A stretch of DNA of 64,000 nt from assembly GCA_027320085.1 (NCBI GenBank), contig DAHVLZ010000009.1, forward strand, positions 32,001 to 96,000. Direction: 5' to 3'. The stretch comes from Pseudomonadota bacterium (lineage in GTDB: Bacteria; Pseudomonadota; Gammaproteobacteria; JAKAQQ01). Positions 31,880 through 64,000 of this stretch are shown here, piece by piece; the stretch's first letter is position 1, and each line of letters begins with the position of its first letter. The notes under the pieces are model-generated. The model saw nothing but the letters and a program-made list of their open reading frames with translations. It ran no database searches and was not told the DNA's origin. The position numbers and the translations under genes are program-made.

Positions 31880-34800
31880 CTACCCGGGTTTTTTCACAAA
31901 ACCGAGCACATGGGCCCGGGCAGCACTGATCTGGTGGATACGCGGGTTCCGCCAGGGTCCCGTGACGTGATAGTAGGTTTCACTCATGCTTTCGATCACA
32001 CGCCGGAAGATCCGGGACAGCGCAAGAAGGATCCCCCCCCCGATCGGGCCACCGAAAATGGCTCCCGCGATCGGCAGTGTGGACCCTATATGGGGGATGA
32101 CCAAGGCCACCTGATCATAACTCCGTTTGACGAGGTTGGTTTCCCCGGTAAGCCAGATGGCGATCGAGGAGCCGAAAAGCGTGGCGTCCCGGGTCACCGC
32201 CATCCCGTCTCGGATGGAGAAGCTTCCCTCCAGGCGATCGTAACTGAGCCCGCGGGCAAAGACATCGCTGAAATCGAGGCCCAGCCGACGCGGTAGCGCG
32301 TTCAGGCTGAGGAGCGCAATGAAGCGTCCGGCACTCCCCGGCTTGATCGCGAGGACGCGGCCGTCCCGGACGGAAAACTGGATGCTGCCCGAGAGCGATG
32401 AGCGATCCGGGTGCCAGGGAAGCCCTCGCCAACCCAGATTCAGGGCAAAACGGGCATGCTCCCCGGTCAGAATCCGCTTGATGCCGAGCTGGTGGAATGC
32501 CGATCCGACTTTGGGACTCGCGATCTTTGCATTGAGTTCAACCTGTGAACCCGAAGGATTCCAGGTCCATTGGCCCCCACCCGTGATTTTCAGGTCAGGA
32601 GCGGTGAGTGCGAGGTGGGAAAAGCGGAGGGTATGAGGAGCAGGATGGATCCATGAAAAGACGACCTGGCCGAGCGAGATCCGTCCATAGCGGGTCTGCG
32701 TGCTGGACCAATCGATGTTGGGTAAATCGCCCGGCCTGAGCAGATGAGTGCCGGATCCGGCAAGATGGACCAGCGGGGCGATCTCGAAGCGGCTGAAGTC
32801 CAGCCGGATGGGATCCCGGCTGCCCGGGGGGGGAATGAAACCGGTACCGGCGAGAGCCTGTCCCGCCACTTGGAAACGAAGGCCACTCTGTTGCGCCGCC
32901 TGGACCGAGAGGCTCAGCGGCCCCAGATTCTGTCCCCAGCCGGTCAGGCGGGCGAGCTGGAGATCCTGGATCTGGAACGGTGGGAAGCCGGGCCCGGAAT
33001 GCGTAAACTCCCGATCGAGCCGCCACCATCCAGCGAGATCGACCGTGCCGAGGCGGCCCGTGACGAGGATTCCGGCCGCCGGAAGAGGACCGGGCTGTCC
33101 TCCAAAATCAATCCGGCCGGCAGACAAAACCGGCCGCCCGGCGACGAAGCGTCCACGGGTTTCGATCCAGGCGATCGGGCCCCAGTGAGCTTGGGCACTG
33201 AAGCGTGAATCTCCGCGGAGCAGGCGACCCTCAAAATCCAGGGTCATGGACTGGTTTTGAACCTTAGCCAGCGGAGCCGGCAGGAGAAGACGGGTACCGA
33301 CCAGATGGCTGACCGCCTTGAGCTGGAGCACGCCCGCAAGGTGCGTGGACGGATAGGACATCTCGGCTTGCCAGTCGGAGGCCCCTTGGACGAGGTGGGA
33401 CAGCGGATGTCCCAAACCCAGCTTTGCCCCATCCAGCGCCCCCACCATCTGGAGATGGGTCTCCCCTCCCCGTGTCCAGGCATTGAAAGTGAGGTGATGG
33501 CCATCCAGACGGGCCGTCACCGCCTGGCTGGTCAGGGCCAGGTTGTCGAAGCGGACGTTTCCTTTGAGATGGTGGAGAACGAGGGGCCAGGGCCGCCAAC
33601 GAAAGCGGTCCCGATCAAAGCGGACCACCCCCTGGATCGTCGGATGATCCAGGGCATGGACGGGGAGCCGGATCTGGACTGAAGCCCAAAGCGGACCTTC
33701 GAGTTCAAGACGGGTAAACAGTCCACTCCAGTGACGGGACAGGGGTGACGAATCGAGATAGCTCACAAGGGTTGAGGCCCGGCCCGCAAAAGTGCTCTGA
33801 ATATGGAGTACGGACCGCTTGAGTTGGGGGATCACAAGACGCGATCCGGTCAGCGGAAAAGCCGCTTCCGTCCCCCCCGCGATCGCAACGGAAAATCCGG
33901 CCCCGGCAAATGCCCCCCGGGCCCGGTCCACCAGAAGATCCGGCCAACCCGGTGCAATGTGGACCTCGGCCTTCTCGAGCGAGAATCCCACTTCAAACCG
34001 CCCACCGCCCCGTGCGAACGGAAAGTCCGCAAGTGCCCCGTCGAAGACGAGATGGGCCTTGGGGACGTTTCCGGCGACGAATGCCTTCGCAAGCCATCGG
34101 TCCAGTCCCGGACTCAGGATCCCGTAGGGGATATCCTGCGCCATGAGCGGGAGTTTGCCATGGTGCAGACGGGCATCCAGATGGAGGGTCGGGCCTCCAC
34201 CTTTGGGGATCTCCAGGACAGCCGTCCGGACCCGGATCGAAAAGGCGCGGGCATGGATCCAGGTGGGGGCAAGACTCAAGCGGATGCCCGCATGCTTCTG
34301 GTAGGCGAGAACGGAACCTCCCCACGCGAGCCTGATCGTCCGTCTGAATAGGCGGTGATCGCGGACCTTAAGAACTGAAGGTGCGAAGATCACGGATCCC
34401 GCCCCGCCCAACCAGTCGAAGCGTCCGGAAAGACCAGACAGTCCAGGCCAGCGCCTCCAAGCCGAACCCCCCACCTGTTTGAACCGTCCCGAGGCCGAAC
34501 GCACACCCAAACCACCCTTGGCAACCACGAATCGGGTCGCCAGGCCGTCGAGCTGGCCTACGGGTTTCACATGACCCAGGAGGATGGCCACCGCGCGAAT
34601 CGTCGGGAACTGCCTGATCAGCGGCACGAAGGGTTCGAGCGTTCCCAGGAAAAACCGGTGGGCTCCGAGTTGATAGGTTGTCTCGCCAGGATGCGTCATC
34701 CTCCAGCCGATCTCGAGATCCTCGCGACGAACCGGATGACCCGGCTGAACGACGAGCAGAGGGGACAAAATGGCCTGCCGGCGGGTCCAGTCCACGTTGA

Positions 34801-49979: not shown

Positions 49980-52042
49980 GTGCGCCTCAAGCCCAGATCG
50001 TGATCCCAGATAAGCCGGGTGAGCCCGGCTGGTTCCGCCGCCACCTCTGGGGAATCCTGGTCTGCCTGGCCTTTGGGCTTACGGGGGCCATCTATGCTCT
50101 AGGCCTCTCGGGCGGATGGATCCTCGATGACCTGACGAACATCGTGCAGAACCCGGCGCTCTACATCCATCCCTGGAGTTACGGGGCCGTCATGCACGCC
50201 GTCTTCTCCTTCGATGCCGGACCGCTCCGCCGCCCGATCAGCATGCTCACCTTCGCCCTCAACCGGACGTTTTTCGGGCCCGGACCCTTTTCCTTCAAGA
50301 TCACGAATCTCGCCCTTGAGCTCCTCAACGGCCTTTTGCTCCTGGGGTTCACCCGCCGGCTGCTTAGGATCGGACGGACCCGTTGGTCCAAGGACTGGAC
50401 CGATCGCGAAATCGACTACACGGCGCTTGCCGTGGTCGCCGCCTGGCTCCTCCTCCCCCTCAACGTCACCTCGGTGCTCTATGTCGTCCAGCGGGAAGCG
50501 GCTCTGGCCGCCACCTTCACGATCGCGGGTGCCTGGTTTTACCTGGCTGCCCGCGAGCGGCAAATCGAGCGTGGGGAGGGCTGGATCCCGCTCACCACCG
50601 GCCTTGCCCTCTTTCTCGTCCTGGCCAGTCTGGCCAAGGAGTCGGGTGCCCTCCTCGTCGCCTACGTCTTCCTCATAGAGGCGCTGTTGTTCCGTTTCAG
50701 GAACCGGTCGGGGCGGACGAGCCGGGGGATTCTTCTTTTTTATCTCGCCTTTCTCGTCCTGCCGGCTCTCGGGGGACTCGCCTGGACCTATGAAACCGGA
50801 CTCTTGAGCTATACCGGCCGACCATTCACCCTCGGGGAGCGACTGCTCAGCGAAAACCGGGTGGTGCTCCACTACATCGGCTGGGCGCTCCTGCCGAACC
50901 TGGCGGACTTCACGGTCTTCCATCACCTGATCCCATCCACGGGCTGGCTCCGCCCCCCCTCGACCCTCTTTTCTGCCCTGGCCCTGGCTGCCCTCCTCGT
51001 CCTGGCCTTTCTCCTGCGCCGGAAAAATCCTCTCATGGCCCTCGGGATCGGCTGGTTTTTCGTGGGCCAGCTCATGGAATCGACGGTCTTCCCGCTTGAG
51101 CTGGTCTTCGAACAGCGCAACTACCTCGCGGACTGGGGGCTCGTCCTCCTCGTCTTCTCGCTGCTCCTCCTGGCCGAACCCCGCCTACGCCACCGCTCCG
51201 CACGAATCACGGTCGCCCTCCTGCTCATGGCCTTCTACGCCTCCGTGACGGCCCAGTGGACCTGGGCGTGGCGCAACAACGTCGCCCTGGCACTCGATCA
51301 GGCCACCTTCCACCCTCACTCACCCCGCGCGACCTATTTCCTTGGGGAAGAACTGAGTGACCTCACCCTGGGGGGCGATACCAAGCTCTATCCGGCTGCC
51401 GTGGTGGCCCTCGACCGGGCCGGACGGTTACCGAATGCCGATCTTCTGCCTGATGCGGCCAAGGTGATCCTGAGCCAGGAAACCGGGCACCCGACCGAAG
51501 CCCAATGGTTCGCCGAGATGGAGGCCAAGCTCCGGAGTCACGTGCTCACCGTGAGTGATCTCGAAGCCCTCCAGGGCATGGTCAACTGTGAAACCGCCCA
51601 CCACTGTCATCTACCCCCGCCCTGGATGAAGGCCCTGTTCCGGGCCGCACTCGAAAGCCCACGGATCAACGAACTGCCCTTCATCAAGGGGAACCTTCTC
51701 GTCCTGGACGGCAATTGGAGATTCGACGATCACCTGCCCATGGCCTCGATCCGCCGGCTCAATGCCCTGGCCGCCCGTCTCAATCCCGGGGTCCCCCAAT
51801 ACCGGATCAACCTGGCCTCAATCGATCTCGCCATGGGCAACCTGAAGGCCGCCCGCCGCGATCTGGCCCTGCTCCAATCCATGAACTGGCTGGGCCGGAT
51901 GAGCCCCGCCATCCACCTGCTCGAAACACAGATCCGGAACTACCGGAAACCCTCACCCCAGGCTACGGTGAAAACACACACCCAGGCGAGCCCCGCCCCG
52001 GGCCATCAGGGCCCACTCGCCCGCCGCCAACCGAAACGGTAG
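49976..52042 (+). CDS. GT-C fold membrane glycosyltransferase (TMTC/TfpW-like), putative pilin glycosylation
   Basis: Loop-1 DD (WILDD), RRPISMLTFALN, YVVQRE, KES, FEQRNY, many TMs, TPR-like tail; TTGA overlap with the ICMT gene. Confidence 0.7.
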   Translation: MSAPQAQIVIPDKPGEPGWFRRHLWGILVCLAFGLTGAIYALGLSGGWILDDLTNIVQNPALYIHPWSYGAVMHAVFSFDAGPLRRPISMLTFALNRTFFGPGPFSFKITNLALELLNGLLLLGFTRRLLRIGRTRWSKDWTDREIDYTALAVVAAWLLLPLNVTSVLYVVQREAALAATFTIAGAWFYLAARERQIERGEGWIPLTTGLALFLVLASLAKESGALLVAYVFLIEALLFRFRNRSGRTSRGILLFYLAFLVLPALGGLAWTYETGLLSYTGRPFTLGERLLSENRVVLHYIGWALLPNLADFTVFHHLIPSTGWLRPPSTLFSALALAALLVLAFLLRRKNPLMALGIGWFFVGQLMESTVFPLELVFEQRNYLADWGLVLLVFSLLLLAEPRLRHRSARITVALLLMAFYASVTAQWTWAWRNNVALALDQATFHPHSPRATYFLGEELSDLTLGGDTKLYPAAVVALDRAGRLPNADLLPDAAKVILSQETGHPTEAQWFAEMEAKLRSHVLTVSDLEALQGMVNCETAHHCHLPPPWMKALFRAALESPRINELPFIKGNLLVLDGNWRFDDHLPMASIRRLNALAARLNPGVPQYRINLASIDLAMGNLKAARRDLALLQSMNWLGRMSPAIHLLETQIRNYRKPSPQATVKTHTQASPAPGHQGPLARRQPKR

Positions 52043-55000
52043 AGCCCGGCATAGACCACGGGGGCCAGCCAGAGCGACGTCAGGGCACTCAGGGTGAGTC
52101 CGCCCATGACGGCGACGGCGAGTGGCTTGAGAAGATCGGTTCCATGACCGATGCTGACCGCGAGCGGCAGGAAGCCCAGGACATCCGCCAGCATGGTCAT
52201 GAGGATGGGCCGCAAGCGTTGCCGTGCCGCCCAGGCGACCAGGCGGGGTGCGGGCGAGGTTCCACCCAACTGGTGGGCACGCGCGAAAATCAGGATGACG
52301 TTGTTGACCCCGATGGCAAAGACCAGAAGCACGCCCAGAAAGGCCGTGCTGTCCAGATTGATGCCGCTGATCCAGAGTGCGAGAAAGGCCCCGCTTCCTG
52401 CCAGCGCCGTCGCAAAAAGGGCGGAGATGGCCGCCCGCTGGCTGCTGAATTGCAACCCCAGGAGGATGAGCAGCATGAACAGCGCACCGGTCAGGATGAG
52501 TACCATCTGCTGGAAACTTTTCTTCTGTTGCCGGTAGTAGCCCCCGATCACGGGCGTGATCCCCGGCGGCAGGTGGAGTTTCAGGATGATCCGCTGGGCA
52601 CGGGCGGCCGCGACGCTCAATCCCTCCCCCGATTTGGGTTGAAGCTTGATCAGGGAGTAAGGGACGAGATTCTGGTGCGTCACGTAGGGAACGATACCCT
52701 GAAGATCGAGATGCACCACCCGGTTGAGCGGCGTATAGGTACCGCCGGGCAGACGCAGGGGGAGTTTTCCGAGGTTCATGGGATCGGTGCGGACGGAGGG
52801 CACCACCCGGACCCGGATGGGGAGAATTTGTTCCCCCCGGGTGAGAAAACCGGCACGCCGACCCCAGAAGTCCGTTTTCAGGCTCGCCGCGATGGCCGGC
52901 GGGGTGAGTCCGTAGAGGGCTGCCAGGATCCGGGGAGTCACCCGGAGTTCCGGCCCGGCCGAGGGGGACTTGAAAACCAGGGAATTGAAATCGTGGCTCC
53001 GTCTCAAGGCCGAGAGGAGACGGCGGCCATCGGCGCGGAGCACGAGCGAATCGGATCCGAAGAGCTGGATTTGAAGCGGTGCGTGGGATCCTGAGAGATT
53101 GCCCAGCCGGTTGATCATGACCTGCATGGTCTCGAGCGTGGTGAGATCGGGGGCCTTTGCCCGGAACGCGTGCCGGAGCTCGGTCATGACCTTCCGGGTG
53201 CTTTGCGGATGGTGGGGCTTGAGCACGACCACAAGCCCTCCCTTGTTCGGCGTGGCGTAGCGGTTGCCGAATCCGCGTCCGATGACGAGCGAAGCACGTT
53301 CGACATTGGGATTCCGGAGGGCCACCGCCATGAGATCGCGTCCCACCCGTTCGGTTTCCCGAACCCCGTTCCCGACTGGTGTCCGGAACGGAACCACGAA
53401 AATTCCCTCGTCCCAATGGGGCAGAAAGGCCGTCGGCAGGTGGGTCACGGCCAGGAGGGCACCCCCGCCCACGAGACCGATGACCGGGAGGGCAAGCCAC
53501 GGTTTCCGCATGCCCAGAACGAGCAGTCGGCCATGGCTTTTTCGTAATGCCCGCTCACCGGGCAGGCGGTGCGGTCGGCGCGGGCGTTGGGCAATCGAAA
53601 GGGTGAGGAGCGGCGTCAGGACGAGGGCCACAATCTGGGAGGTGACCAAGGCCACGATCACCGCCCAGGCCATGTCCCGGAACAAAAGCCCGATCGTTCC
53701 CGAGAGAAAGGCCAGCGGAACGAAGATGACACAAGAGGTCATCGTGGCCAGGGACATGAGCGGCAGGATCTCTCCCACGCGGGCCAGGGCATGTCGGCGG
53801 CGTTCTTCCGCACTGCCTTCCCGGGGGCCATGGAGGCCCCGCTCCATGACCACAATGGCATGATCGACAAGCGCACCGATGGCAGCCGTGATGCCACCCA
53901 GCGTCATGATGTTGATTCCGAACCCGAGCGCCTGAAGGACCAGAAGGGTGGCGGCCACCGAGAGCGGAACCACCGTGAGGGTCGCGAGAGCCGCGTCCCA
54001 GCGACCCAGGAAGAGCAGCACCACGAGCCAAGCAATCAGGCTGCCGAGCAGGAGGGCCATCCAGACGTCGCGCAGGCTGGATCCGATCAGCCGACTCAAG
54101 TTGTAGATGGGTACAAGATGGATGCCTGGTGGCAGATGGGATTTCATCTGGTCGAGGCGGGAGGCAATGGCACGGGCGACCCCATCCTGGTTGACCCCCC
54201 GGTCCGCCGAAACGTCGATCACGAGCGCGTGCCGCCACCCGGCAACCGCCGCTTCCCGGACGAGAGGGGGCGGACGGATCCGGATCTTCGCGATGGCTCC
54301 CAGGGCCAGCGGGGCCCGGGAGAGCACCCCCGGCGCGCTCTGGGTGACCAGGGGTTCGGGGCCCGACAGCTCGTCGGCCGCGGGTGAAGCCCTGCTGGAG
54401 TTTTCCCCGAGTGGCAGGCTCAGGGCCTCGAGGTCCTTCGGATTGAGCGGCCGCGGAGTCGTCGCCAGGAGGAATTGCTCGTGGAAGACATTGAGGATGC
54501 CCGAGAAGAACGGCCCCTGTTCGGTCCGCAGGAGGTTCACGACGGCTGAGGCGCTCAGGTGGTATTCCGCAAGACGCCGTTCCCGGAGATCGACGTCAAC
54601 CTCCGGCCAGCCCCGTCCCGTATCGTTGACCTCATAGACTCCCGGGAGGGCCAGGAGGGCCGGCCGGACCTGGAAGGCGAAGGTGGGCATGAGAGCCGAG
54701 CTGTTGAACCGGTTGGAAACCAGCGCGTATTCGGCCAGGGGATAGATATTGGGCATCATGAGCCGTTCGCTGATCGTGGCTCCGGGGGGTAGCGTGATCG
54801 CAGCCAGCCGGGCCTGCAAAAGCAGATAGGCGAGTTCCGGATTGATCCCGCGGGCAAAATACACGTGAAGCTTGGTAAGCCCGTTGCCCGTCTGCGAACG
54901 AACCATCCGGACTCCGGGCTCTCCCTTGGCCGCTTGTTCCAGCGGCCGGGTGACCTCGAGCAGCATGAAGCGGACGGGCAAATTGTTCGTATGGACCAGA

Positions 55001-55143
55001 ACCGCGACTTTGGGAAAATCGACGTTTGGGAAAATGCTTTTCGGGAGTGAGTGGTAAGCCAAAAACCCACCGGTCAGAACCAGGACCGGCAACAAAAGGG
55101 CCGTGAAGCGGTTCGCCCAGAGGAAATCGAGGTACCGTCGCAT
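52006..55143 (-). CDS. RND efflux permease (AcrB/CusA family)
   Basis: About 1045 aa; NIMTLGG, VDHAIVVME, FLPHWDEG, RLRPILMT, PLAVAVMGGL. Confidence 0.9.
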   Translation of the reverse strand: MRRYLDFLWANRFTALLLPVLVLTGGFLAYHSLPKSIFPNVDFPKVAVLVHTNNLPVRFMLLEVTRPLEQAAKGEPGVRMVRSQTGNGLTKLHVYFARGINPELAYLLLQARLAAITLPPGATISERLMMPNIYPLAEYALVSNRFNSSALMPTFAFQVRPALLALPGVYEVNDTGRGWPEVDVDLRERRLAEYHLSASAVVNLLRTEQGPFFSGILNVFHEQFLLATTPRPLNPKDLEALSLPLGENSSRASPAADELSGPEPLVTQSAPGVLSRAPLALGAIAKIRIRPPPLVREAAVAGWRHALVIDVSADRGVNQDGVARAIASRLDQMKSHLPPGIHLVPIYNLSRLIGSSLRDVWMALLLGSLIAWLVVLLFLGRWDAALATLTVVPLSVAATLLVLQALGFGINIMTLGGITAAIGALVDHAIVVMERGLHGPREGSAEERRRHALARVGEILPLMSLATMTSCVIFVPLAFLSGTIGLLFRDMAWAVIVALVTSQIVALVLTPLLTLSIAQRPRRPHRLPGERALRKSHGRLLVLGMRKPWLALPVIGLVGGGALLAVTHLPTAFLPHWDEGIFVVPFRTPVGNGVRETERVGRDLMAVALRNPNVERASLVIGRGFGNRYATPNKGGLVVVLKPHHPQSTRKVMTELRHAFRAKAPDLTTLETMQVMINRLGNLSGSHAPLQIQLFGSDSLVLRADGRRLLSALRRSHDFNSLVFKSPSAGPELRVTPRILAALYGLTPPAIAASLKTDFWGRRAGFLTRGEQILPIRVRVVPSVRTDPMNLGKLPLRLPGGTYTPLNRVVHLDLQGIVPYVTHQNLVPYSLIKLQPKSGEGLSVAAARAQRIILKLHLPPGITPVIGGYYRQQKKSFQQMVLILTGALFMLLILLGLQFSSQRAAISALFATALAGSGAFLALWISGINLDSTAFLGVLLVFAIGVNNVILIFARAHQLGGTSPAPRLVAWAARQRLRPILMTMLADVLGFLPLAVSIGHGTDLLKPLAVAVMGGLTLSALTSLWLAPVVYAGLYRFGWRRASGP

Positions 55144-56204
55144 CAGGGGTGGATCTCGACCGCGCTCCCCGACCGCAACCGGGTGTTTCCCACCACGACC
55201 ACCGCTTCGCCCGCCTTGAGATTCCCCAAGACATAGGCCCCCCGCCGCCGATTGGTCAAAAGCCGCACCGGAACGGCAAAGGCATGTCCACCCCGGACCA
55301 CGTAGACGTAACTCTGATCCCCATGCATGACAATGGCCGGGACAGGCACACGAAAGGCCTGCCCGGACTGGACGGGGATCCGGCAGTGGAGCCACTGTCC
55401 TGGTAACAGGGGATCGGCGAGCGGGAGGTCAATGTAGACCCGGACGAGGCCATAGTGGCTCGCGCGGTTGCCGATGTTGCGCACGGTTCCCGTTCCCTGC
55501 CAGTGGGAAAGGCGCAGTCCGACAGGTTCGCCGGCATGGATCCGCTTCACGATCGCGGGAGGAACCAGGGCCTCGGCCCAGATCCGGCCACGGCCCATCA
55601 GGGTCATGATGGGCAACGCCGTCGGCACGATGGCACCCGGTGCCACGAGGTAGCGGATTGTTCCGGAAAACGGGGCCCGCAAGACCTGCGCTGATGCTTC
55701 GGCGACGAGCGAGCGCAACTGGCTCCGGGCTTCCGCCAGGGAAAGCCTGAGGTTGTCCACCACCTCGCGTGCCACCAGGCCCTTCTTGAGCAGCAGGCTG
55801 TAGCGGGCCAGCTTGGTTCGGGCGTAGAGGGCCTGGGCGCGGGCGGCTGCGATCTGCGCACGCAACCCGACCGGGGCAATCCGCATCAGGATGGCCCCCT
55901 CCCGGACAAAACCGGGCGGCTGGTAGGGTCCCACCACCCGCCCCCCGACCGGGGCGGTGAGTGTAATCTGGTTGTTGCTGCGAATTCTCCCGAGCGTCCG
56001 GAAGAACCGGTGCCAGGGTCTTGCCTGGATGGGAGCCACACTCACCCGAAGACCCTGGGCCCCGGCACAGGGGATGGCGGCAAAACAAAAAAGGAGGAGA
56101 AGAACCCGGTACCGGTTCCAGTGCGATTCATTCCCAACGGACGGGCTGGCTGGAAGCACAGGTTCGGGGACGGGCGGCTTCAGTCTATCGCAGCATTCAA
56201 TCAT
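55143..56204 (-). CDS. RND periplasmic adaptor (MFP)
   Basis: Lipoyl halves (APVGGRV, LRAPFSGTI), helical hairpin, GNLKAGEAVVVVG; TGATG coupling to the permease. Confidence 0.85.
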   Translation of the reverse strand: MIECCDRLKPPVPEPVLPASPSVGNESHWNRYRVLLLLFCFAAIPCAGAQGLRVSVAPIQARPWHRFFRTLGRIRSNNQITLTAPVGGRVVGPYQPPGFVREGAILMRIAPVGLRAQIAAARAQALYARTKLARYSLLLKKGLVAREVVDNLRLSLAEARSQLRSLVAEASAQVLRAPFSGTIRYLVAPGAIVPTALPIMTLMGRGRIWAEALVPPAIVKRIHAGEPVGLRLSHWQGTGTVRNIGNRASHYGLVRVYIDLPLADPLLPGQWLHCRIPVQSGQAFRVPVPAIVMHGDQSYVYVVRGGHAFAVPVRLLTNRRRGAYVLGNLKAGEAVVVVGNTRLRSGSAVEIHP

Positions 56205-56542
56205 CCGAACCTCGCAAGTCGCAGCGCCTCAAAACCAACCGGCAGACACCCTGAACCCGTCCCTGATCCAGGGCAGAGCACTACGGCAACCCCCCCCGTT
56301 CCCGAAAGAACCCCTGGGGGCAGTATATCCCAAGGCATCCGGCCGGGATCGGAAACTGCAACCAAGCGGGCGCCATGGTAGCCTTCCCGGCAGGTCCGTT
56401 GTCTCCCTGCATGCCAGCAGTGGCGGGATCACGCTTCGCAAAGCCCCCAATCCTGCGGCTTGAACGACAGTGGACGGGAACAGATCCGTGGCACGGTAGT
56501 AGAGTCCAGATGAACTTTTACAGATGGCTGGGGTCGGATCAG

Positions 56543-58195
56543 ATGACGATGCACGAGAACCGGAACGACCCTGACCGCCTCCCCCGGAGAGTCTCCCGGA
56601 CGCGGTGGATTCTCCTGCTGCAATGGACCCCCGCACTCCTGGGGATGGCCGGTCTCGCGTTCCCGTGGGTCGCAGCCCCCCCCGCACAAGCCCAGGGATG
56701 CCGGCTTTTTCCCCTGATCGTCCGGAAGGCCCGGAGTCTGGCGGCCAAACCCTATGCCCCACCCCGCGAGATCCCCCACTTCCTCGAGCGACTCAGCTAC
56801 AACGAGTACCAGGCCATCCGGTTCCGGCCGGCCCGGAGCCTGTGGCACCGCCGGCATTCGCGCTTCCAGGTGCAACTCGTGCCCCCGGGCCAGTACTACA
56901 CCACCCCCATCCATCTCTTCGTCCTCTCGCACTGCCGGATCACGCGGCTCCGGTTTCATGTTTCCGATTTCACCTATCCCTCGGCGGCCCTCCGCGCGCG
57001 GATCCCACGGGCTCTCGGTTTTGCCGGTTTCAAGCTGACTTATCCTCTCGTGGGACACCACCGGCACAACCAGTTCCTGGTCTTTGCCGGTGCCAGCTAT
57101 TTCCGTGGCGTTGGGGAGCCGAACAACTTCGGCCTCTCCGCCCGGGGCATTGCCATCAATACCGCCTTCCCTCCCCATGAGGAGTTTCCGGCGTTCCGGA
57201 AATTCTGGCTGGTGCGCCCCCCCCGGAACAGCCACTCGATCGTGATCTATGCCCTGCTCAACGGACCCAGTGTCACCGGTGCCTACCGGTTTATCATCCG
57301 CCCGGGAATGGTGACCCGGATCCGGATGCGGGTCCGGCTCTTTTTCCGGACCACGCCCCGGGTGCTGGGTATCGCCCCCCTGACCAGCATGTTTTTTTAC
57401 GGCTCCGGAACTCCCCGGCCCGTCGGCGAATGGCGTCCTGCCGTTCACGACTCGGATGGACTCGAGATGGCGAACGGAGACGGCGAGTGGCTCTGGCGCC
57501 CCCTCATTGATCCCAAGCATTTCCTGGTGACCCGTTTTGCACTCGACAATCCGGGCGGTTTCGGCCTGGTCCAGCGGAACGAACACTTCTCGAACTACGA
57601 GGATCTCGGGACACGCTACGATACCCGTCCCAGTGCCTGGGTGGTCCCGCATGGCCGATGGGGCCGGGGATCCGTCGAGCTCGTCGAGATCCCGACCGAC
57701 TCGGAGACCGTCGACAATATCGTGGCGTACTGGGTACCCCGCGAACCCGTCCAGCCCGGACGGGAATACCACTACAGCTACACCCTCCTCTTCGGCCGGG
57801 CCGGAATCGCCCACCCTCCGGGTGGAGAGGTGCTCCAGACCTTCGTGGGCTCAGGTCGCAACCCTGGCCGGTCCTGTACGGGAAATCCCCACCGGTTGCG
57901 CTATGTGATCGACTTCAGTGTGCCCAAGGCCTTCCGGAACAAACCCGCCCATGGGGTCGTGACCGCCAACGCTCCGGCCCGGGTCAGCCAGGTCACGCTC
58001 GTCACCGCCCGGGATGTCGGCGAGACCCACCAGTCGTTTGACCAGCTCTCCTTCCAGGTCACCGCCCCCCGCAGGCACCCGCTGGAGCTCCGGGCCTTCC
58101 TCGCGAGCCGGGGCCACGCCTTTACCGAAACCTGGAGCGGCATGCTACCGGCCAGCACGGCCAACCGCCTCACGGCCTCGCCCGGCTGCCCCTAA
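56543..58195 (+). CDS. opgG: Glucan biosynthesis protein OpgG/OpgD (GH186); start uncertain, 56509-56549
   Basis: LSYNEYQAIRF, FAGASYFR, GLSARG, EEFP.F, VHDSDGL, EIPT..ETVDNIVAYW, ETW. Confidence 0.9.
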   Translation: MTMHENRNDPDRLPRRVSRTRWILLLQWTPALLGMAGLAFPWVAAPPAQAQGCRLFPLIVRKARSLAAKPYAPPREIPHFLERLSYNEYQAIRFRPARSLWHRRHSRFQVQLVPPGQYYTTPIHLFVLSHCRITRLRFHVSDFTYPSAALRARIPRALGFAGFKLTYPLVGHHRHNQFLVFAGASYFRGVGEPNNFGLSARGIAINTAFPPHEEFPAFRKFWLVRPPRNSHSIVIYALLNGPSVTGAYRFIIRPGMVTRIRMRVRLFFRTTPRVLGIAPLTSMFFYGSGTPRPVGEWRPAVHDSDGLEMANGDGEWLWRPLIDPKHFLVTRFALDNPGGFGLVQRNEHFSNYEDLGTRYDTRPSAWVVPHGRWGRGSVELVEIPTDSETVDNIVAYWVPREPVQPGREYHYSYTLLFGRAGIAHPPGGEVLQTFVGSGRNPGRSCTGNPHRLRYVIDFSVPKAFRNKPAHGVVTANAPARVSQVTLVTARDVGETHQSFDQLSFQVTAPRRHPLELRAFLASRGHAFTETWSGMLPASTANRLTASPGCP

Positions 58196-58214
58196 GGGGG
58201 CAGATCCCGGATAC

Positions 58215-60020
58215 TCAATGGGGAAACTGGTACGTCCAGGTTTCGGTCAAAGGCCTGCCCCGATAGCGGATCCAGGCCCGCAGGATGGCTCCGGGATGAT
58301 CCGGAACCGTGAACCGCAGGCGCCAGCGCGTTGTCCCGGTGACCTTGGCAAGCGTGATGTCCCGCACCGGACCGGGCGCTTGAACGCTTCCCTCAAGCAC
58401 AACCCAAGACGGGATCCGGCCCAGTTCCCGGCCCTTGAAGTAGAGCGTGAACGTGCGTTGACCCTCGGCCGAGCGTGCCTCGCGCGTGAGCTGGATCCGC
58501 CCGGGCCGTTCGGATGACCCCGGCAGCGAACCCCAGTACTGCGTATAACGCAGAAGAAGCGGGTGATCCGGGGGCGGCAGGGTGCGAGGCACCCAGAAGG
58601 CCACGATATTGGCGTCATCCGGCCGCTGGGTCGGGATCTCGACCAACTCCAAGTGGCCCGCGCCCCAGTTTCCCGATGGACGGATCCAAAGGCTTGGCGA
58701 TCTCTGGTAGGCGTTGGCGAGTGACTGGTAGGACCGGAAATGCCGGTCGCGCTGGAGCAGTCCAAATCCCCGGGGATTGTCCAGGCCGAAGCTCCGGACG
58801 TTCAACTGGCGTGGGTTCATCAAGGGAGCCCAAACCCAATGCCCGTGGTCTGTCTCGTAAGACAGCCCATCTGCATTGTGAACCGCGGGATGCAGTCGCA
58901 CGGCCCGGGACGGGTCCATGCGGCCACGCAGAAACATGCTGACCATGGGCGCAAGGCCGAGGCGCCGGATCCCATGGCGTAGAAAAAGGGCGGCCGTGAC
59001 CCGAACCCGGGTCGACGGCCCGGGAGTCACACGGAACCGGTAGGCGCCGGTAGCGCTGGAGCCATCCAGAATGGCGAGTACCGTGAGCGAGCGGGCATCC
59101 CGGGCCGGCACCTCGATCCAGAACGACCGGAACGCGGGAAATTCCTCGCGCGTGTTCGGTACCGCTGTATCGATGGCGAGACCGCGGGCCCAGGAGCCCC
59201 AGGACTGGCCCCGCCCCCGGGCCCGGAAATAGCTCGCCCCGAGAAAGGACAGGAAAGGAAATGACGAATGACCCGTCCTCCGATCCCGGAGGGTGAATCC
59301 CGCGGCACCGAGCGTAGCCGGGAGTCTCCGGGCGAGTGGAGGCGGGAAACGAAAGTCGCGCGGGGCAAACGACAGTGGAAAGATCTTATGGCCAACAACG
59401 AGGTGCATCGAGACCGGATGGACAAAGAGACTGCCTTCCGGCCTGAAGGTGGGGATCAGGCGGGCGGTCTTGGGCCAGAGGGGTAGCGGTCCCCGGAATG
59501 TCACCGCGCGGTACGTGGTCCGGTCCATCTGGCGCAGAACCGCCGGAGCGTCCGGGAGGGGCGCATAGGGTTTGTCGGCCAGGCGGTGCGCACGATCCAC
59601 CAGGAGGTTGAACAGCCAGCGCGATCCGTGCCCGGATCCCGTACCCGTTCCCGGGCGGGTTCGCCCGGGCAGGCTGGCCATCCAGTCCTCGTCCGCAAGC
59701 CGGACTCGGCGCAGCGCCGCTCCCGCCTGGGTCGCCGCCTGGGTGGTAGCACGCGAAAGACGGGTTTCGGCGAGTTTCAGCCGGGCAATTTCCCTGGCGA
59801 GACGTACACGGAGCCCGTGGAGGCGGTGCTCCAGTGCGGCTTGTCGCCCCTCCGTTTCCCGGAGCCGGACATCGGTCGACTGCAGGGCGCCTTGGATCTT
59901 GTGCACGGAGGACAGGGAAGCACAACCCGAAAGGCCCAGAAGAATCACGAGCAGGGGGAATGTGCCCGCCTTCCACCTCTTGGGTTCCCGAACCGCTCGC
60001 AGCGTAATTGGACCGGCCAT
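58215..60020 (-). CDS. Lipoprotein OpgG/D paralog with N-terminal coiled coil, degenerate catalytic sites
   Basis: Lipobox LSG/C33; helical stretch; FLGASYFRA, EEFPAF, VHNADGL, EIPT..DDANIVAFW, TETWTY. Confidence 0.85.
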   Translation of the reverse strand: MAGPITLRAVREPKRWKAGTFPLLVILLGLSGCASLSSVHKIQGALQSTDVRLRETEGRQAALEHRLHGLRVRLAREIARLKLAETRLSRATTQAATQAGAALRRVRLADEDWMASLPGRTRPGTGTGSGHGSRWLFNLLVDRAHRLADKPYAPLPDAPAVLRQMDRTTYRAVTFRGPLPLWPKTARLIPTFRPEGSLFVHPVSMHLVVGHKIFPLSFAPRDFRFPPPLARRLPATLGAAGFTLRDRRTGHSSFPFLSFLGASYFRARGRGQSWGSWARGLAIDTAVPNTREEFPAFRSFWIEVPARDARSLTVLAILDGSSATGAYRFRVTPGPSTRVRVTAALFLRHGIRRLGLAPMVSMFLRGRMDPSRAVRLHPAVHNADGLSYETDHGHWVWAPLMNPRQLNVRSFGLDNPRGFGLLQRDRHFRSYQSLANAYQRSPSLWIRPSGNWGAGHLELVEIPTQRPDDANIVAFWVPRTLPPPDHPLLLRYTQYWGSLPGSSERPGRIQLTREARSAEGQRTFTLYFKGRELGRIPSWVVLEGSVQAPGPVRDITLAKVTGTTRWRLRFTVPDHPGAILRAWIRYRGRPLTETWTYQFPH

Positions 60021-60024
60021 TGCT

Positions 60025-62076
60025 TCAGTGCCACTCCCGTACCTGGTGGGGAGGCAGTGTCCATACCTCCTCGTGTAGTTTCACGAGGAGTCGCCGGTCG
60101 TTGAGAACCGCAAGCTGCTCACTCGCGCTCAACGCACGGGGACCCCGCGCCAGAAGCCGGGCACTGTAGAGCGCCCGGGTGAGCTGGATCTCTTCATTAT
60201 AGCGTCGGGGCTGGTCCGACAGCCGGGCCGCGATCACCGCGTTCACCCAGGGATCGACAATGGCCGCACGGAATCCTGAACGGGCCCGGACTGCGGACCT
60301 GGTTCGTTCCGTCACCGCCTGCTCGAGACTCTCAAGTTCCTCGGGTGGATGATCCTCCTCCGGGGTCAGGAAGAGGCGGTTCCTTCGGGCCCAAGTCCCC
60401 ACACGGGCGCTTCCTGCCAAGGTGGCCACCGGGAGGGCCAGGACCAGCGCCACCACAATCGGCAGGAGCCAGCCCAGGTCTCCCGGGTCCAGAAAGTAGA
60501 CCAGGCCCGCCCATGCGATCGCGATCAAGGTGCCGGGGATGTAGGCACGGGATGTGCGCATTCCCTGGGAGGCGGCGGTTCGCTGCTGCCGTCCCCATTG
60601 GACCCGGTGGCCCAAAAGCGAGGAGAGGACGAACCAGCTGTGAAATAGCATCCGCACGGGAGCGACCAAGGTGGAATAGACGATCTCGAGAAGCCCGCTG
60701 GCCAAAAAGCGCAATCCCCCCCCGAATGGGGCCGACCGTCGCTTGAGAAACACGAGCAGCAGGCCTAGGAACCGGGGTAACAGCAAGATCGTGGCACTGG
60801 CGCCGAGCAGAAAAACCGCGAGGTCGGCGTGCCACACCGGCCAGACCGGAAACAGGCCATGCCCCGGAGGAAAGTAGTCTGGGGGGATCAGCGCGTGCCA
60901 GGCAATGACGGCCGTACCCAGGAGGAGGTACAACAGCCAGAGCGCGGAGGCCACATAGGACATGGCACCGTTGACGAACAGGAGACGGTTCATGGCCAGA
61001 AGTCCCTTGGCAAACAAGAGCCTGAGGTGCTGCAGGTTCCCGTAACACCATCGGCGATCCCGCTTGAGTTCGTCGAGAAGCGTGGGCGGGGTTTCCTCCC
61101 AGCTGCCCGCCAGTTCAGGCACCAGCCAGACCGACCATCCGGCGCGCCGCATGAGCGCGGCCTCCACAAAATCATGGCTCAGAATGTCGCCCGACAGCAA
61201 GGCGCGCCCCTTGAGACGCGGCAGCTGACAATGTTCCATGAATGGAGCCACCCGGATGATGGCATTGTGGCCCCAGTAATAGCTGTCTCCCAACTGCCAG
61301 AACGAGAGGCCTGTGGCAAACATCCGGCTGTAAACCCGGTTGGAGAACTGCTGTATCCGCCCCGACAGGGTTTGCTGGCGGACCACGCCAGGCACGCTTT
61401 GCAGGATCCCGACCTGGGGATGGGCTTCCATGAGTTCCACGAGATGGCCCAGGCAGTCGGCGGACATCAGGCTGTCCGCATCCAGAACGACCAGATACTT
61501 GTAGAGGGATCCCCACCGCTTGAGGAAATCCGCGATGTTACCGCTCTTCCGCTTGATGTTCGACCGTCGGCGTCGATAGTAGATACGCCCGAAAGCAGCC
61601 AGCGAGCGGCAGAGTTCCGCCCATGCCCACTGCTCGCGGACAACGAGGTCCGGATCGTTGCTGTCCGACAGGATGAAAAAATCGAATCCCGCGAGGATCC
61701 CGCTTTTCCCGAGCTGCCGGTAGAGGACCTCGATCGTGGCCGCGACGCGTTCCGGGTTTTCCCGGTACACCGGAAAGACGAGCGCCGTTCGGGCATCCGG
61801 ACCGGGAACCGTGTCCCCGGCAGGAGGCGGGGTGTCTGTCCGGGGATCAGGACGCAACAGGACGAGGAAACCAAACAGAGCCGTCCAGAAACCGATAGCG
61901 ATCCAGGCCGTGAGCACACCGAAAAGCAGGACCGTGGCTCCGTTGAGCCAGGGGTTCCCGGGCGAGGGCAAAGCGCCCGCCATGTTGATGCTGGCGAAAC
62001 CGGCCGGCACAAGAACCAGGATGCCGAGCAGGGTGCGACGGATCCATGCACTTCGCCGCCAACGGGAAAAACGCAC
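60025..62076 (-). CDS. opgH: Glucans biosynthesis glucosyltransferase H
   Basis: FFILSDS, RKSGNI, VLDADS, YWGHNAIIR, LSHDFVEA, RDRRWC.GNLQH. Confidence 0.94.
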   Translation of the reverse strand: MRFSRWRRSAWIRRTLLGILVLVPAGFASINMAGALPSPGNPWLNGATVLLFGVLTAWIAIGFWTALFGFLVLLRPDPRTDTPPPAGDTVPGPDARTALVFPVYRENPERVAATIEVLYRQLGKSGILAGFDFFILSDSNDPDLVVREQWAWAELCRSLAAFGRIYYRRRRSNIKRKSGNIADFLKRWGSLYKYLVVLDADSLMSADCLGHLVELMEAHPQVGILQSVPGVVRQQTLSGRIQQFSNRVYSRMFATGLSFWQLGDSYYWGHNAIIRVAPFMEHCQLPRLKGRALLSGDILSHDFVEAALMRRAGWSVWLVPELAGSWEETPPTLLDELKRDRRWCYGNLQHLRLLFAKGLLAMNRLLFVNGAMSYVASALWLLYLLLGTAVIAWHALIPPDYFPPGHGLFPVWPVWHADLAVFLLGASATILLLPRFLGLLLVFLKRRSAPFGGGLRFLASGLLEIVYSTLVAPVRMLFHSWFVLSSLLGHRVQWGRQQRTAASQGMRTSRAYIPGTLIAIAWAGLVYFLDPGDLGWLLPIVVALVLALPVATLAGSARVGTWARRNRLFLTPEEDHPPEELESLEQAVTERTRSAVRARSGFRAAIVDPWVNAVIAARLSDQPRRYNEEIQLTRALYSARLLARGPRALSASEQLAVLNDRRLLVKLHEEVWTLPPHQVREWH

Positions 62077-62082
62077 GGTGAT

Positions 62083-62331
62083 CTACGGCACGCCGCGGTC
62101 CTGTCCCAGCGGTGCCGGAACCAACCGCCTTCTCCGGATCGGTGGATTTTTGAAGGCCACTTCCGGGACGTGAGCGTATGCCTCAAGACGATCCAGAAAA
62201 CCGTCTGCCGACCAGGGTGAGATGGCTTCCGCAAAGGAAACCTCAGGCTGGCCGGGGTGATTCAGGAGCTGCCGATAAGCCTGGAGACGGGATTCAGGGC
62301 CGGAGCCCGGACAGGAGCTGTCGACGATCAG
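62083..62331 (-). CDS. Unannotated small ORF matching the OpgH N-terminal region (in frame with opgH, ends at TAG 62085-62083; possible CTG start)
   Basis: Manual translation ..FKNPPIRRRRLVPAPLGQDRGVP*; resembles the PPIRR..VP.P motif I recall from long OpgH N-termini. Confidence 0.45.
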   Translation of the reverse strand: MIVDSSCPGSGPESRLQAYRQLLNHPGQPEVSFAEAISPWSADGFLDRLEAYAHVPEVAFKNPPIRRRRLVPAPLGQDRGVP

Positions 62332-62358
62332 CGGCGCGACTCAGCGAGGGTTTCCCAT

Positions 62359-62387
62359 AGTGTAAGGAAATCACCGCCTTCCATCAA
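62359..62387 (-). promoter_or_regulatory. Putative sigma70 promoter of the opgH operon
   Basis: TTGATG-N17-TACACT on the minus strand. Confidence 0.5.
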
Positions 62388-62455
62388 AGGTAGCCACCCG
62401 TTCCCGGGTTCGAACGGGCATCCTCCCGAACCGGCTGGAGCGTGGACCGCACGGA

Positions 62456-64000
62456 TCAGACCCGGAAGGCCTCGAGGGATTCCGGGTTGGCCAAAGCCCC
62501 CGTGTTCGCCACCCTCTCCCCGGCAACCGCCTGACGCACTGCCATCTCGCTGATCTTCCCGCTCCGTGTCCTCGGAATGTCCGGAACCTCCCGGATGCGG
62601 GCGGGTACGTGACGGGGCGTGAGCGCGGTACGGATCCGCTCGCGGATGCGCGACTCGAGTCCCTCGTCCAGCACAGCGCCTGGCCGGAGCACCACAAACA
62701 GGAGAATACGCTCGGAACCCTCCCCATCCGGCTCTCCAACGACCACCGCTTCCGCAATCTCTTCAAAGATCTCAACCTGCCGGTAGATCTCAGCTGTGCC
62801 AATACGGACCCCACCGGGATTGAGGACGGTATCGGAACGACCGTAGATGATCACTCCTCCCGAGGCCGTGAGTGCAGCAAAATCGCCGTGGCACCAGATG
62901 CCGGGGAAGCGATGGTAGTAGGCAGCCCGGTAGCGCACTCCCTCCGGATCGTCCCAGAACCCGAGCGGCACCGTGGGGAAGGGACGCGTGCAGACCAGTT
63001 CGCCCCGTTCGCCCACAACCGGACGGCCCGAGGAGTCGTAGATCTCGACCGCCATGCCGAGTCCACGACACTGAATCTCCCCCCGGCGGATCGGCAAAGT
63101 CGGCGTGCCCAGGACGAAACACGAGACGATATCGGTTCCGCCGGAGATCGAGTTCAGACGGACGTCTGACTTAAGATCACGGTAGACATAATCAAACTGC
63201 TCGGCCAAGAGGGGAGATCCCGTGGAGAGAACCGTCCGGAGGCGTTCGAGGCCCCGCCCGCCTTCCCGCTTGACCCGGCTCTTCTCCAGGGTCAGGAGGT
63301 AACGGGCACTGGTCCCGAAAATCCCGATCTCCTCCTCGTCGATCATGCGAAGCAGAGCATCCGGGTGTGGATGGATGGGCGAGCCGTCGTAGAGCACAAG
63401 GGTCGCGCCGAGCGCCAAGGTGCTCGCCATCCAGTTCCACATCATCCAGCCCGTGGTCGTGAAATAGAACAGACGGTCGCCCAGACCCACGTCGGTATGG
63501 AGCCCAAGCTCCTTGAGATGCTGGAGGAGCACCCCGCCCTGCCGGTGGATCATGCATTTGGGCTTGCCAGTCGTCCCGGAGGAATAGAGGATGTAGAGGG
63601 GGTGGTCGAAAGGCAGGTCGGCGTACGGGAGGGTCCCCGGCGATCGTTCCAGGAGATCGGGATAGGCGACCGCATGGGGGAAGTCGGCGCGGCCGGTTTC
63701 CGCCATGAGATAGGGCACGAGAATCGTACGGGTGAGGGTCGGCAGGCGGGCGGCAATTTCCCGCACACGCCCACGGACGTCGTAGCGTTTTCCACCATAG
63801 CAATAGCCATCAATGGCCACCAGCACTTTGGGCGCGACCTGGCCGAAGCGTTCGAGGACGCCCTCGACCCCGAAATCCGGCGAAGCGCTCGTAAACACGG
63901 CTCCCAGGCTCGAGGCCGCAAGCATCGTAACGACCGCAGCCGGATGGTTCGGCAGATAGGCGGCGATCCGGTCACCCGGCTCCACACCCGCAGCTCTGAA
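62456..64000 (-). CDS. Acetoacetate--CoA ligase (5'-truncated by window edge)
   Basis: SPDFG, YSSGTTGKPKC..H, TTTGWMMWNW, SISGGTDI, GRSD..LNPGGVRIGTAEIY. Confidence 0.92.
   Translation of the reverse strand, partial: FRAAGVEPGDRIAAYLPNHPAAVVTMLAASSLGAVFTSASPDFGVEGVLERFGQVAPKVLVAIDGYCYGGKRYDVRGRVREIAARLPTLTRTILVPYLMAETGRADFPHAVAYPDLLERSPGTLPYADLPFDHPLYILYSSGTTGKPKCMIHRQGGVLLQHLKELGLHTDVGLGDRLFYFTTTGWMMWNWMASTLALGATLVLYDGSPIHPHPDALLRMIDEEEIGIFGTSARYLLTLEKSRVKREGGRGLERLRTVLSTGSPLLAEQFDYVYRDLKSDVRLNSISGGTDIVSCFVLGTPTLPIRRGEIQCRGLGMAVEIYDSSGRPVVGERGELVCTRPFPTVPLGFWDDPEGVRYRAAYYHRFPGIWCHGDFAALTASGGVIIYGRSDTVLNPGGVRIGTAEIYRQVEIFEEIAEAVVVGEPDGEGSERILLFVVLRPGAVLDEGLESRIRERIRTALTPRHVPARIREVPDIPRTRSGKISEMAVRQAVAGERVANTGALANPESLEAFRV

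Follow-up and report, generated by a model that had tools for sequence, protein, structure and literature searches.

The 64,000-nucleotide stretch analysed here, called the window throughout, comprises positions 32,001 to 96,000 of contig DAHVLZ010000009.1 (assembly GCA_027320085.1) and carries on its minus strand, at 58215..60020, a gene encoding a 601-residue relative of the glucan protein OpgG. This protein, P0001, was recognised from the list of open reading frames (ORFs) and with Pfam, AlphaFold2 and Foldseek, and appears to be a lipidated, stalked member of the GH186 (MdoG) family that has lost the catalytic residues of that family. The gene for the glucan glucosyltransferase, opgH (60025..62076, minus strand; NCBIfam NF003958 MdoH, E 2.2e-246, 819 bits against a cut-off of 419), ends 4 nt before its ATG on the same strand. 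A canonical OpgG/OpgD-like paralog (56375..58195, plus strand; Pfam MdoG E 2e-163) is convergent with it, the stop of the paralog lying 19 bp from that of the lipoprotein gene, and probably has its true start downstream of 56375. The assembly of the window holds exactly these two MdoG-family genes, and NCBIfam has no model that matches either protein. The only sequencing runs found to contain the stretch are four DNA runs from a single mine-drainage study, possibly the origin of the DNA, with no RNA run among them, and relatives carry the database labels mine drainage metagenome, Gammaproteobacteria and Acidiferrobacterales.

Residues 137-599 (58224..59612, minus strand) form the GH186/MdoG-fold domain according to Pfam, HMMER comparison with Protein Data Bank chains, AlphaFold2 and Foldseek. 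The match to Pfam MdoG (PF04349, E 1.1e-131) covers profile positions 3-478 of 478, and the best matches of the sequence among solved structures are Escherichia coli OpgG (8ip2, 1txk), Xanthomonas OpgD (8x18) and E. coli OpgD (E 1.5e-86 to 7e-64), phmmer giving E 8e-86 to 1.5e-86 for the chains 1txk and 8ip2. The AlphaFold2 model, built on a 100-sequence alignment, has a mean predicted local distance difference test value (pLDDT) of 89.1 and a confident, beta-rich C-terminal domain. Its best Foldseek match was E. coli OpgG 1txk (E 5.7e-49, template modelling score 0.89 on the target, root-mean-square deviation 2.5 Å, 34% identity), and the top nine matches were OpgG or OpgD structures throughout (E 6e-49 to 3e-43). 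By both methods the model shows the two-domain beta fold of OpgG.

The N-terminus has the features of a lipoprotein signal peptide (residues 1-32, 59922..60020, minus strand), with five basic residues in the n-region, the hydrophobic segment FPLLVILLGL and then L30-S31-G32-C33, the Cys33 codon lying at 59924-59922. The lipobox consensus is [LVI][ASTVI][GAS]C, and LSGC with Cys33 agrees with it, as in the bacterial lipoproteins that are substrates of signal peptidase II. Long N-terminal extensions with a Cys are found in 23 of the 120 best relatives (P0001-P0016 and P0018-P0024), among which Cys33 is invariant (23/23) and the +2 residue is Ala in 22, Val in one and Asp in none. In E. coli, Ala at +2 directs a lipoprotein to the outer membrane; by analogy P0001 would be placed there, on a sorting rule that may not be the one used by this organism.

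The signal peptide is followed in the model by a single long alpha-helix (residues 36-116, 59673..59915, minus strand; AlphaFold2 and DSSP), 81 residues long, with block pLDDT values of 81-95 over residues 41-100; if straight, it would make a stalk of about 12 nm at 1.5 Å per residue. The hydrophobicity profile averaged over 14 clade members (the 12 of subclade A, defined below, with P0015 and P0016, and omitting P0013, P0014 (7-residue insert) and subclade C) peaks at periods of 2.3 and 3.5 residues, the heptad harmonics; 13 of 2000 shuffles had at least as much power at 3.5. A single a/d register runs from residue 39 to about residue 77, after which it shifts. With this long helix and its heptad a/d hydrophobic periodicity, the modelled stalk is accepted here as coiled-coil-like. 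A two-copy complex prediction of residues 34-135 (score 0.01, mark 0.42) says nothing either way on self-association, and an atlas search with the N-terminal region (residues 20-135) returned just one hypothetical cluster, with a score of 0.75 and no lead. A flexible linker (residues 117-133, 59622..59672, minus strand; AlphaFold2) joins stalk and domain; its pLDDT is low, falling below 50 at 124-130, and its sequence is not conserved in the closest orthologs. A preliminary description of the locus had proposed a lipobox LSG/C33 with a residue other than Asp at +2, about 75 residues of coiled coil and a GTGTGSG linker. Lipobox and linker are as described, the latter motif at residues 124-130, and the helix with its clade-wide heptad pattern stands, at a length of 81 residues instead of about 75.

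Catalytic centre and glucan pocket

Residues were mapped by MAFFT alignment with OpgG and OpgD of E. coli K-12 (EcOpgG and EcOpgD; NC_000913.3), and conservation was tabulated for 99 canonical members from an alignment that joined the 120 top-ranking database relatives to the window paralog and the two E. coli proteins. At the general-base position (D300 of EcOpgD, D273 of EcOpgG, D291 of the Xanthomonas enzyme XccOpgD), P0001 carries Asn382 (AAT, 58875..58877, minus strand), and at the general-acid position (D388, D361 and D379, respectively) it carries Ala470 (GCC, 58613-58611). Ser441 (58698..58700, minus strand) stands at the position of R359, the base-supporting Arg of EcOpgD, and Pro467-Asp468-Asp469-Ala470 (58611..58622, minus strand) in place of E385-T386-x-D388. 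Read at EcOpgD D300, D351, R359, E385, T386 and D388, P0001 is thus N, S, S, P, D and A. HMMER alignments confirm both the acid and the base site with 1txk and 8ip2, and the base Asp with 8x18. The claim that this copy lacks both catalytic Asp is therefore borne out, and the codon positions given for it proved exact: Asn at 58877-58875 and Ala at 58613-58611 are 88 codons apart, as are the Asp of HDSDG (57449) and the Asp of VDNIV (57713) in the paralog, which matches EcOpgG at all 10 positions checked.

In EcOpgD the general acid has been identified as D388 and the general base as D300 (PMC10514313, Motouchi et al. 2023), the pair that the preliminary description had named. The remaining activity of the EcOpgD mutants was 0.16% for D388N, 0.46% for R359A, 0.9% for D300N and 2% for E385Q (PMC10514313), and the XccOpgD mutants D291N, D379N, E376Q and D342A each had less than 0.1% (PMC11228985). 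The catalytic residues of GH186 are described as highly conserved, and most of its clades as unstudied (PMC10514313; PMC11228985; bioRxiv 10.1101/2025.04.21.649730; PMC11842490). The same conservation is seen in the canonical members tabulated here: E209, D300 and R359 are invariant (99/99), D388 is Asp in 98 of 99, the D351 position is Asp in all save one, and the E385 position is Glu in 74, Asp in 24 and Asn in one. Since D300 and D388 are Asp in 99 and 98 of the 99, their loss in P0001 is more than chance. Neither the acid Asp, nor the base Asp, nor the R359 Arg with the D351/E385 acidic pair, which define the enzyme class, is present in P0001.

The two sites differ in how widely the change is shared. 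Ala at the acid position is common to P0001 and its two closest relatives, P0002 (76% identity) and P0003 (74%), whereas both of these carry Asp at the base position; the Asn382 substitution is species-specific. The preliminary description had named a lack of conservation among orthologs as grounds for refutation, and half of this holds: the base-site Asn is not conserved, while the acid-site Ala is common to these two relatives and the lipobox Cys to all 23 clade members. The codons of Asn382 and Ala470 are each one base away from Asp codons. A sequencing error at Asn382 was considered and judged unlikely, the identical protein being found on five contigs, possibly all from one study.

The replacement of the catalytic centre is accompanied by the retention of much of the glucan platform. 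Contact residues were taken from a computed alanine scan of the EcOpgD pocket (source data of Supplementary Fig. 13c, PMC10514313), in which residue numbers differ by 10 from those of the precursor, a shift verified at D388, W441, P78 and R359. Binding in that scan depends most on R184 (3.36), Y182 (2.96), F211 (2.34), F112 (1.78), Y192 (1.73), R197 (1.43) and G179 (1.18) (PMC10514313), and the equivalents in P0001 are R266, Y264, F294, F199, W274, R279 and G261, in the same order. Within subclade A (12 proteins), six of these seven residues are kept in 9 to 12 proteins, and every member has Trp in place of Y192. The pocket residues that have changed in P0001 are R359, D388, R162, D173, S195 (to Trp) and T278 (to Val), the first two at least being part of the catalytic centre. 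A retained platform combined with lost catalytic residues is the pattern expected of a protein that would bind glucan and not cut it.

Phylogeny, gene order and selection

A maximum-likelihood tree was built from 68 rows: the 23 lipoprotein-type proteins, 33 of 97 canonical ones (P0017 and every third of P0025-P0120, with 64 left out), the window paralog, EcOpgG, EcOpgD and nine genome-derived ORFs. All lipoprotein-type rows (the 23 and two of the genome-derived ORFs) form one clade with SH-aLRT support of 100 on the longest internal branch (0.55). In the tree this clade is old and co-diverges with the paralog, and 56 alignment columns, that of the lipobox Cys included, are invariant across its 23 members. 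It splits into three subclades, A (12 proteins), B (4) and C (7). Subclade A (support 100) lacks R359 in all 12 members (9 Ser, 3 Cys), D388 in seven (A, A, A, S, R, A, A) and D300 in three (N, Y, Y). Subclades B and C retain D300, R359 and D388, while E385 and D351 are absent from them, as from A. The acid was lost on three or four separate branches of the tree, and this recurrence fits a constraint that relaxed at that position after the loss of R359.

A profile search of 1.84 billion representatives at 50% identity found 3692 family members at E <= 0.001. Only seven of these (P0006, P0016, P0121, P0122, P0124, P0125 and P0127) match the profile from its N-terminus, all seven with a lipobox, and the lipidated, stalked architecture is therefore rare. 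Among them, P0125 carries His in place of R359 and Ser in place of D388, and P0127 carries Asn in place of D300. The trio D300, R359 and D388 was intact in 129 of 148 further 50%-identity representatives listed. The other 19 include P0156, P0157, P0178, P0189, P0194, P0206, P0215 and P0232, and most of them are without the lipoprotein stalk; judged from these residues, other clades too may include non-catalytic GH186 members. The literature searched, which takes in few subscription journals, contained no account of an OpgG/GH186 protein that is lipidated, stalked by a coiled coil or catalytically inactive.

Ten genomes sample the order to which the window belongs, in one family and three genera. 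The lipoprotein gene and the paralog stand side by side in nine of them, and the tenth (65% complete) has neither. In these nine genomes the lipoprotein copy lacks R359 in all nine, D388 in six (Ala or Ser) and D300 in three (Asn or Tyr), and its neighbour has the full catalytic set and is identical to EcOpgG at the 10 checked positions in all nine. The opgH gene was found in eight of the ten genomes, and in each of the eight it immediately precedes the lipoprotein gene on the same strand; it is cut by a contig end in two of them, and in a ninth genome the lipoprotein gene itself starts at the contig edge. Moreover, two genomes of other families, G095 and G300, have a GT2-type ORF in the same upstream position, that of G300 being a fragment just under the Pfam threshold. 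The order of synthase and then lipoprotein gene was thus seen at 10 of 10 loci examined, across the three subclades, which is the genomic linkage of a component of an opg (mdo) cluster.

In some lineages the lipoprotein form seems to have no soluble companion. In G300, which is 99% complete, the family search finds a single MdoG gene, that of the lipoprotein form. The order of G300 is sampled by 61 genomes, 18 of which have a full-length lipoprotein-type match, and in nine of these 18 a second copy was not found with a protein query. In those lineages, where its catalytic trio is intact, the lipoprotein form is the sole MdoG-family gene and hence the OpgG available to OpgH.

Selection was estimated by the NG86 method as the ratio of nonsynonymous to synonymous substitution (dN/dS), from pairs whose dS was 0.7-2.3, the deeper pairs being near saturation. 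The ratio was 0.14-0.24 for the lipoprotein domain, which denotes purifying selection, 0.085-0.16 for the paralog and 0.24-0.42 for the stalk. The lipoprotein gene is uninterrupted by stops in nine of nine genomes of the order, in all three genera. Its domain diverges faster than the paralog, with 50-78% identity to the window's genome (G000) against 62-81%.

Several features of the neighbourhood are recorded here for completeness. One of the 18 lipoprotein-type matches in the order of G300 (G310:C60:2711-4471) has a single in-frame TGA, which could be a sequencing error, a broken gene or recoding. The paralog lies downstream of the lipoprotein gene on the same strand in one genus (G007 and G009) and is convergent with it in the other two. 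Soluble paralogs of two of the three genera (that of the window and its orthologs in G001-G006) have a conserved Cys 1-3 residues past the predicted signal-peptide cleavage site, in the motifs AQA|QGC, GKGC, GLGC, ASGC and ATGC; these do not fit a normal lipobox, and paralogs of the third genus lack the Cys. Export of the paralog by the Tat route was rejected, the N-termini of the paralogs resembling Sec signals that end in A-x-A. A scan of 56000-62700 for promoters and terminators gave nothing above shuffle expectation, and no terminator was found between the convergent genes. Just upstream of the paralog, window positions 52006-56204 (minus strand) hold an RND-type efflux pair with overlapping ORFs, a 1129-residue AcrB/AcrD/AcrF-family protein (Pfam E 6e-163) and a 353-residue HlyD-family adaptor. 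On the other side, at 62456-64000 (minus strand), an AMP-binding (acyl/acetoacetyl-CoA synthetase-like) gene continues past the end of the window. The promoter of opgH may lie in the 379-bp gap between that gene and opgH, where no consensus sigma-70 site was detected.

Possible functions of the tethered copy

Taken together, the residue losses, the retained platform and the gene order suggest that P0001, tethered by lipid, binds glucan as a partner of OpgH without hydrolysing it and leaves the chemistry to the soluble paralog, a reading to which we give a probability of about 0.55. The simplest course of events may have been that an ancestral OpgG downstream of opgH gained a lipoprotein signal and a coiled-coil stalk and, in lineages such as the order of the window that have a soluble and catalytically complete paralog next door, would first have lost R359, E385 and D351. 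The acid and the base would then have been lost repeatedly, while the fold, the glucan platform and the link to opgH stayed. In the present-day cell, a lipidated P0001 seated in a membrane, whose stalk may oligomerise, would accept, retain or pass on the growing periplasmic glucan at OpgH, and the adjacent soluble paralog would cut or transglycosylate it. From the outer membrane, stalk and linker might let the domain reach towards the inner membrane, as in LpoA and LpoB. A bolder version, tentative at best, holds that in these mine-drainage proteobacteria the OpgG that serves OpgH has been hung on a coiled-coil stalk of about 12 nm and its catalysis dispensed with, so that it would capture or guide the nascent chain in the manner of BcsB and leave the setting of chain length to the paralog.

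The preliminary description had also proposed a pseudoenzyme, one that could act as a scaffold, a ruler or a heterodimer partner of active OpgG, and its sequence observation is confirmed, while this first interpretation is partly supported. In its favour, five residues of the catalytic centre are lost, R359, E385 and D351 having been overlooked there, and the glucan contacts are kept; against it, subclade A as a whole does not look uniformly dead, the acid Asp being retained in five of its 12 members and the base Asp in nine. Other observations likewise weigh against a partner that binds without cutting. R359 and D388 themselves add to the computed binding energy (1.37 and 1.36) and R162, D173, S195 and T278 are changed too, so that binding near subsite -1 may be altered, not merely preserved. 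The deviation of 19 of 148 representatives from the trio means that loss of these residues is not unique to the lipoprotein clade. The heptad signal in P0001 alone is modest, since 28 of 500 shuffles reach its power at 3.5 residues. In addition, Asp469 occupies the position of EcOpgD L387, a substrate contact (computed 0.96 kcal/mol), and Asp384 is retained, so that acid and base could in principle have been relocated by one or two residues in P0001-P0003. Finally, the state of these residues is an imperfect guide to function, as E. coli OpgG has all of them and is a very poor hydrolase. EcOpgG is needed for glucan synthesis and yet hydrolyses beta-1,2-glucan very weakly, for which a cofactor not yet known or another activity has been proposed (PMC10514313).

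The points about Asp469 and Asp384 lead to the alternative that P0001 is still an enzyme, a membrane-tethered glucanase, branching enzyme or transglycosylase that uses Asp469 or Asp468 as acid and Asp384 as base, or works by a changed mechanism. Asp469 is shared by P0001 with its two nearest relatives, P0002 and P0003, Asp384 has a conservation of 90% or more in the family, the whole domain is under purifying selection and diverse mechanisms are known for GH186 (PMC11228985). However, four of the seven acid-less members of subclade A (P0006, P0008, P0010 and P0011) have no adjacent Asp, their motifs being TNSN, TNRN and TNAN. Asp at 469 also occurs in P0005, P0007 and P0012, which keep the acid; it therefore predates the loss and is no compensatory gain. 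Moreover, five residues of the catalytic centre have changed together, among them R359, the single replacement of which leaves EcOpgD 0.46% of its activity, and we regard a surviving enzyme as unlikely. A different possibility is a tethered role apart from synthesis by OpgH, in which P0001 would space or tether the envelope, sense or retain finished periplasmic glucans, or bind some other glycan. The long stalk and lipid anchor recall envelope-spanning lipoproteins such as Lpp and LpoA/LpoB, and the remodelling of R162, D173, S195 and T278 could mean a changed ligand. Such a role appears rather improbable in view of the conserved gene order (10 of 10 loci in three subclades, with a spacing of 4 nt in the window), the genomes in which the lipoprotein form is the only MdoG-family gene beside opgH, and the main beta-1,2-glucan contact residues that are kept.

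The faster evolution of this copy (50-78% identity to G000 against 62-81% for the paralog) and the variation of catalytic positions among close relatives would also suit a functionless duplicate on its way to becoming a pseudogene. That reading is largely refuted by the selection data (dN/dS 0.14-0.24) and is very improbable: no interrupting stop occurs in the nine genomes of three genera, and the 56 columns invariant across 23 members belong to an old clade that co-diverges with the paralog.

A non-hydrolytic partner of OpgH would matter beyond this locus. OpgG is indispensable for the synthesis of osmoregulated periplasmic glucans and for virulence in many pathogens, and its molecular role is unresolved. 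The lipoprotein clade, which follows opgH, is apparently tethered and under selection, and has its catalytic losses beside a complete paralog, offers a ready-made separation-of-function variant with which one can ask directly whether the essential function of OpgG needs catalysis. If the OpgG that serves OpgH in these bacteria has indeed dispensed with catalysis, nature would already have shown that the essential part OpgG plays in glucan synthesis, long without an explanation, involves no hydrolysis. On the residue evidence, GH186 would also gain a lipidated, stalked architecture and a probable pseudoenzyme.

Relation to known glucan and envelope proteins

The closest characterised relative is E. 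coli OpgG (MdoG; 1txk, 8ip2), with which P0001 shares the family, the fold, the genetic coupling to opgH and the main glucan-contact residues. EcOpgG is a soluble periplasmic protein with a Sec signal, encoded upstream of opgH, whereas P0001 is a predicted lipoprotein with an 81-residue helix, encoded downstream of opgH. In the catalytic centre, moreover, D273, D361, the Arg and the Glu are all present in EcOpgG, where P0001 has N, A, S and P. The OpgD proteins of E. coli and Xanthomonas (8iox, 8ip1, 8x18) resemble P0001 in fold and in the architecture of the substrate cleft. They are active enzymes (beta-1,2-glucanase / cyclising transglycosylase) that depend on D388/D379, D300/D291, R359 and E385/E376, all of which are replaced in P0001. 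Loop A of EcOpgD, with its GW motif, is absent from P0001 and likewise from all 99 canonical members compared.

Outside the family, the nearest functional analogy may be BcsB, the non-catalytic, carbohydrate-binding periplasmic partner of the processive GT2 cellulose synthase BcsA, anchored in the membrane by a C-terminal transmembrane helix. Like BcsB, P0001 would be a membrane-anchored, non-catalytic partner encoded beside a GT2 glucan synthase, with the partnership with OpgH as the part that we infer; it has no relation to BcsB in sequence or fold, and its predicted anchor is an N-terminal lipid. In the build of its N-terminal part, P0001 resembles Lpp and LpoA/LpoB, in which an N-terminal lipid anchor is followed by a long helical or extended region that bears the functional part, although these lipoproteins are unrelated to it in sequence.

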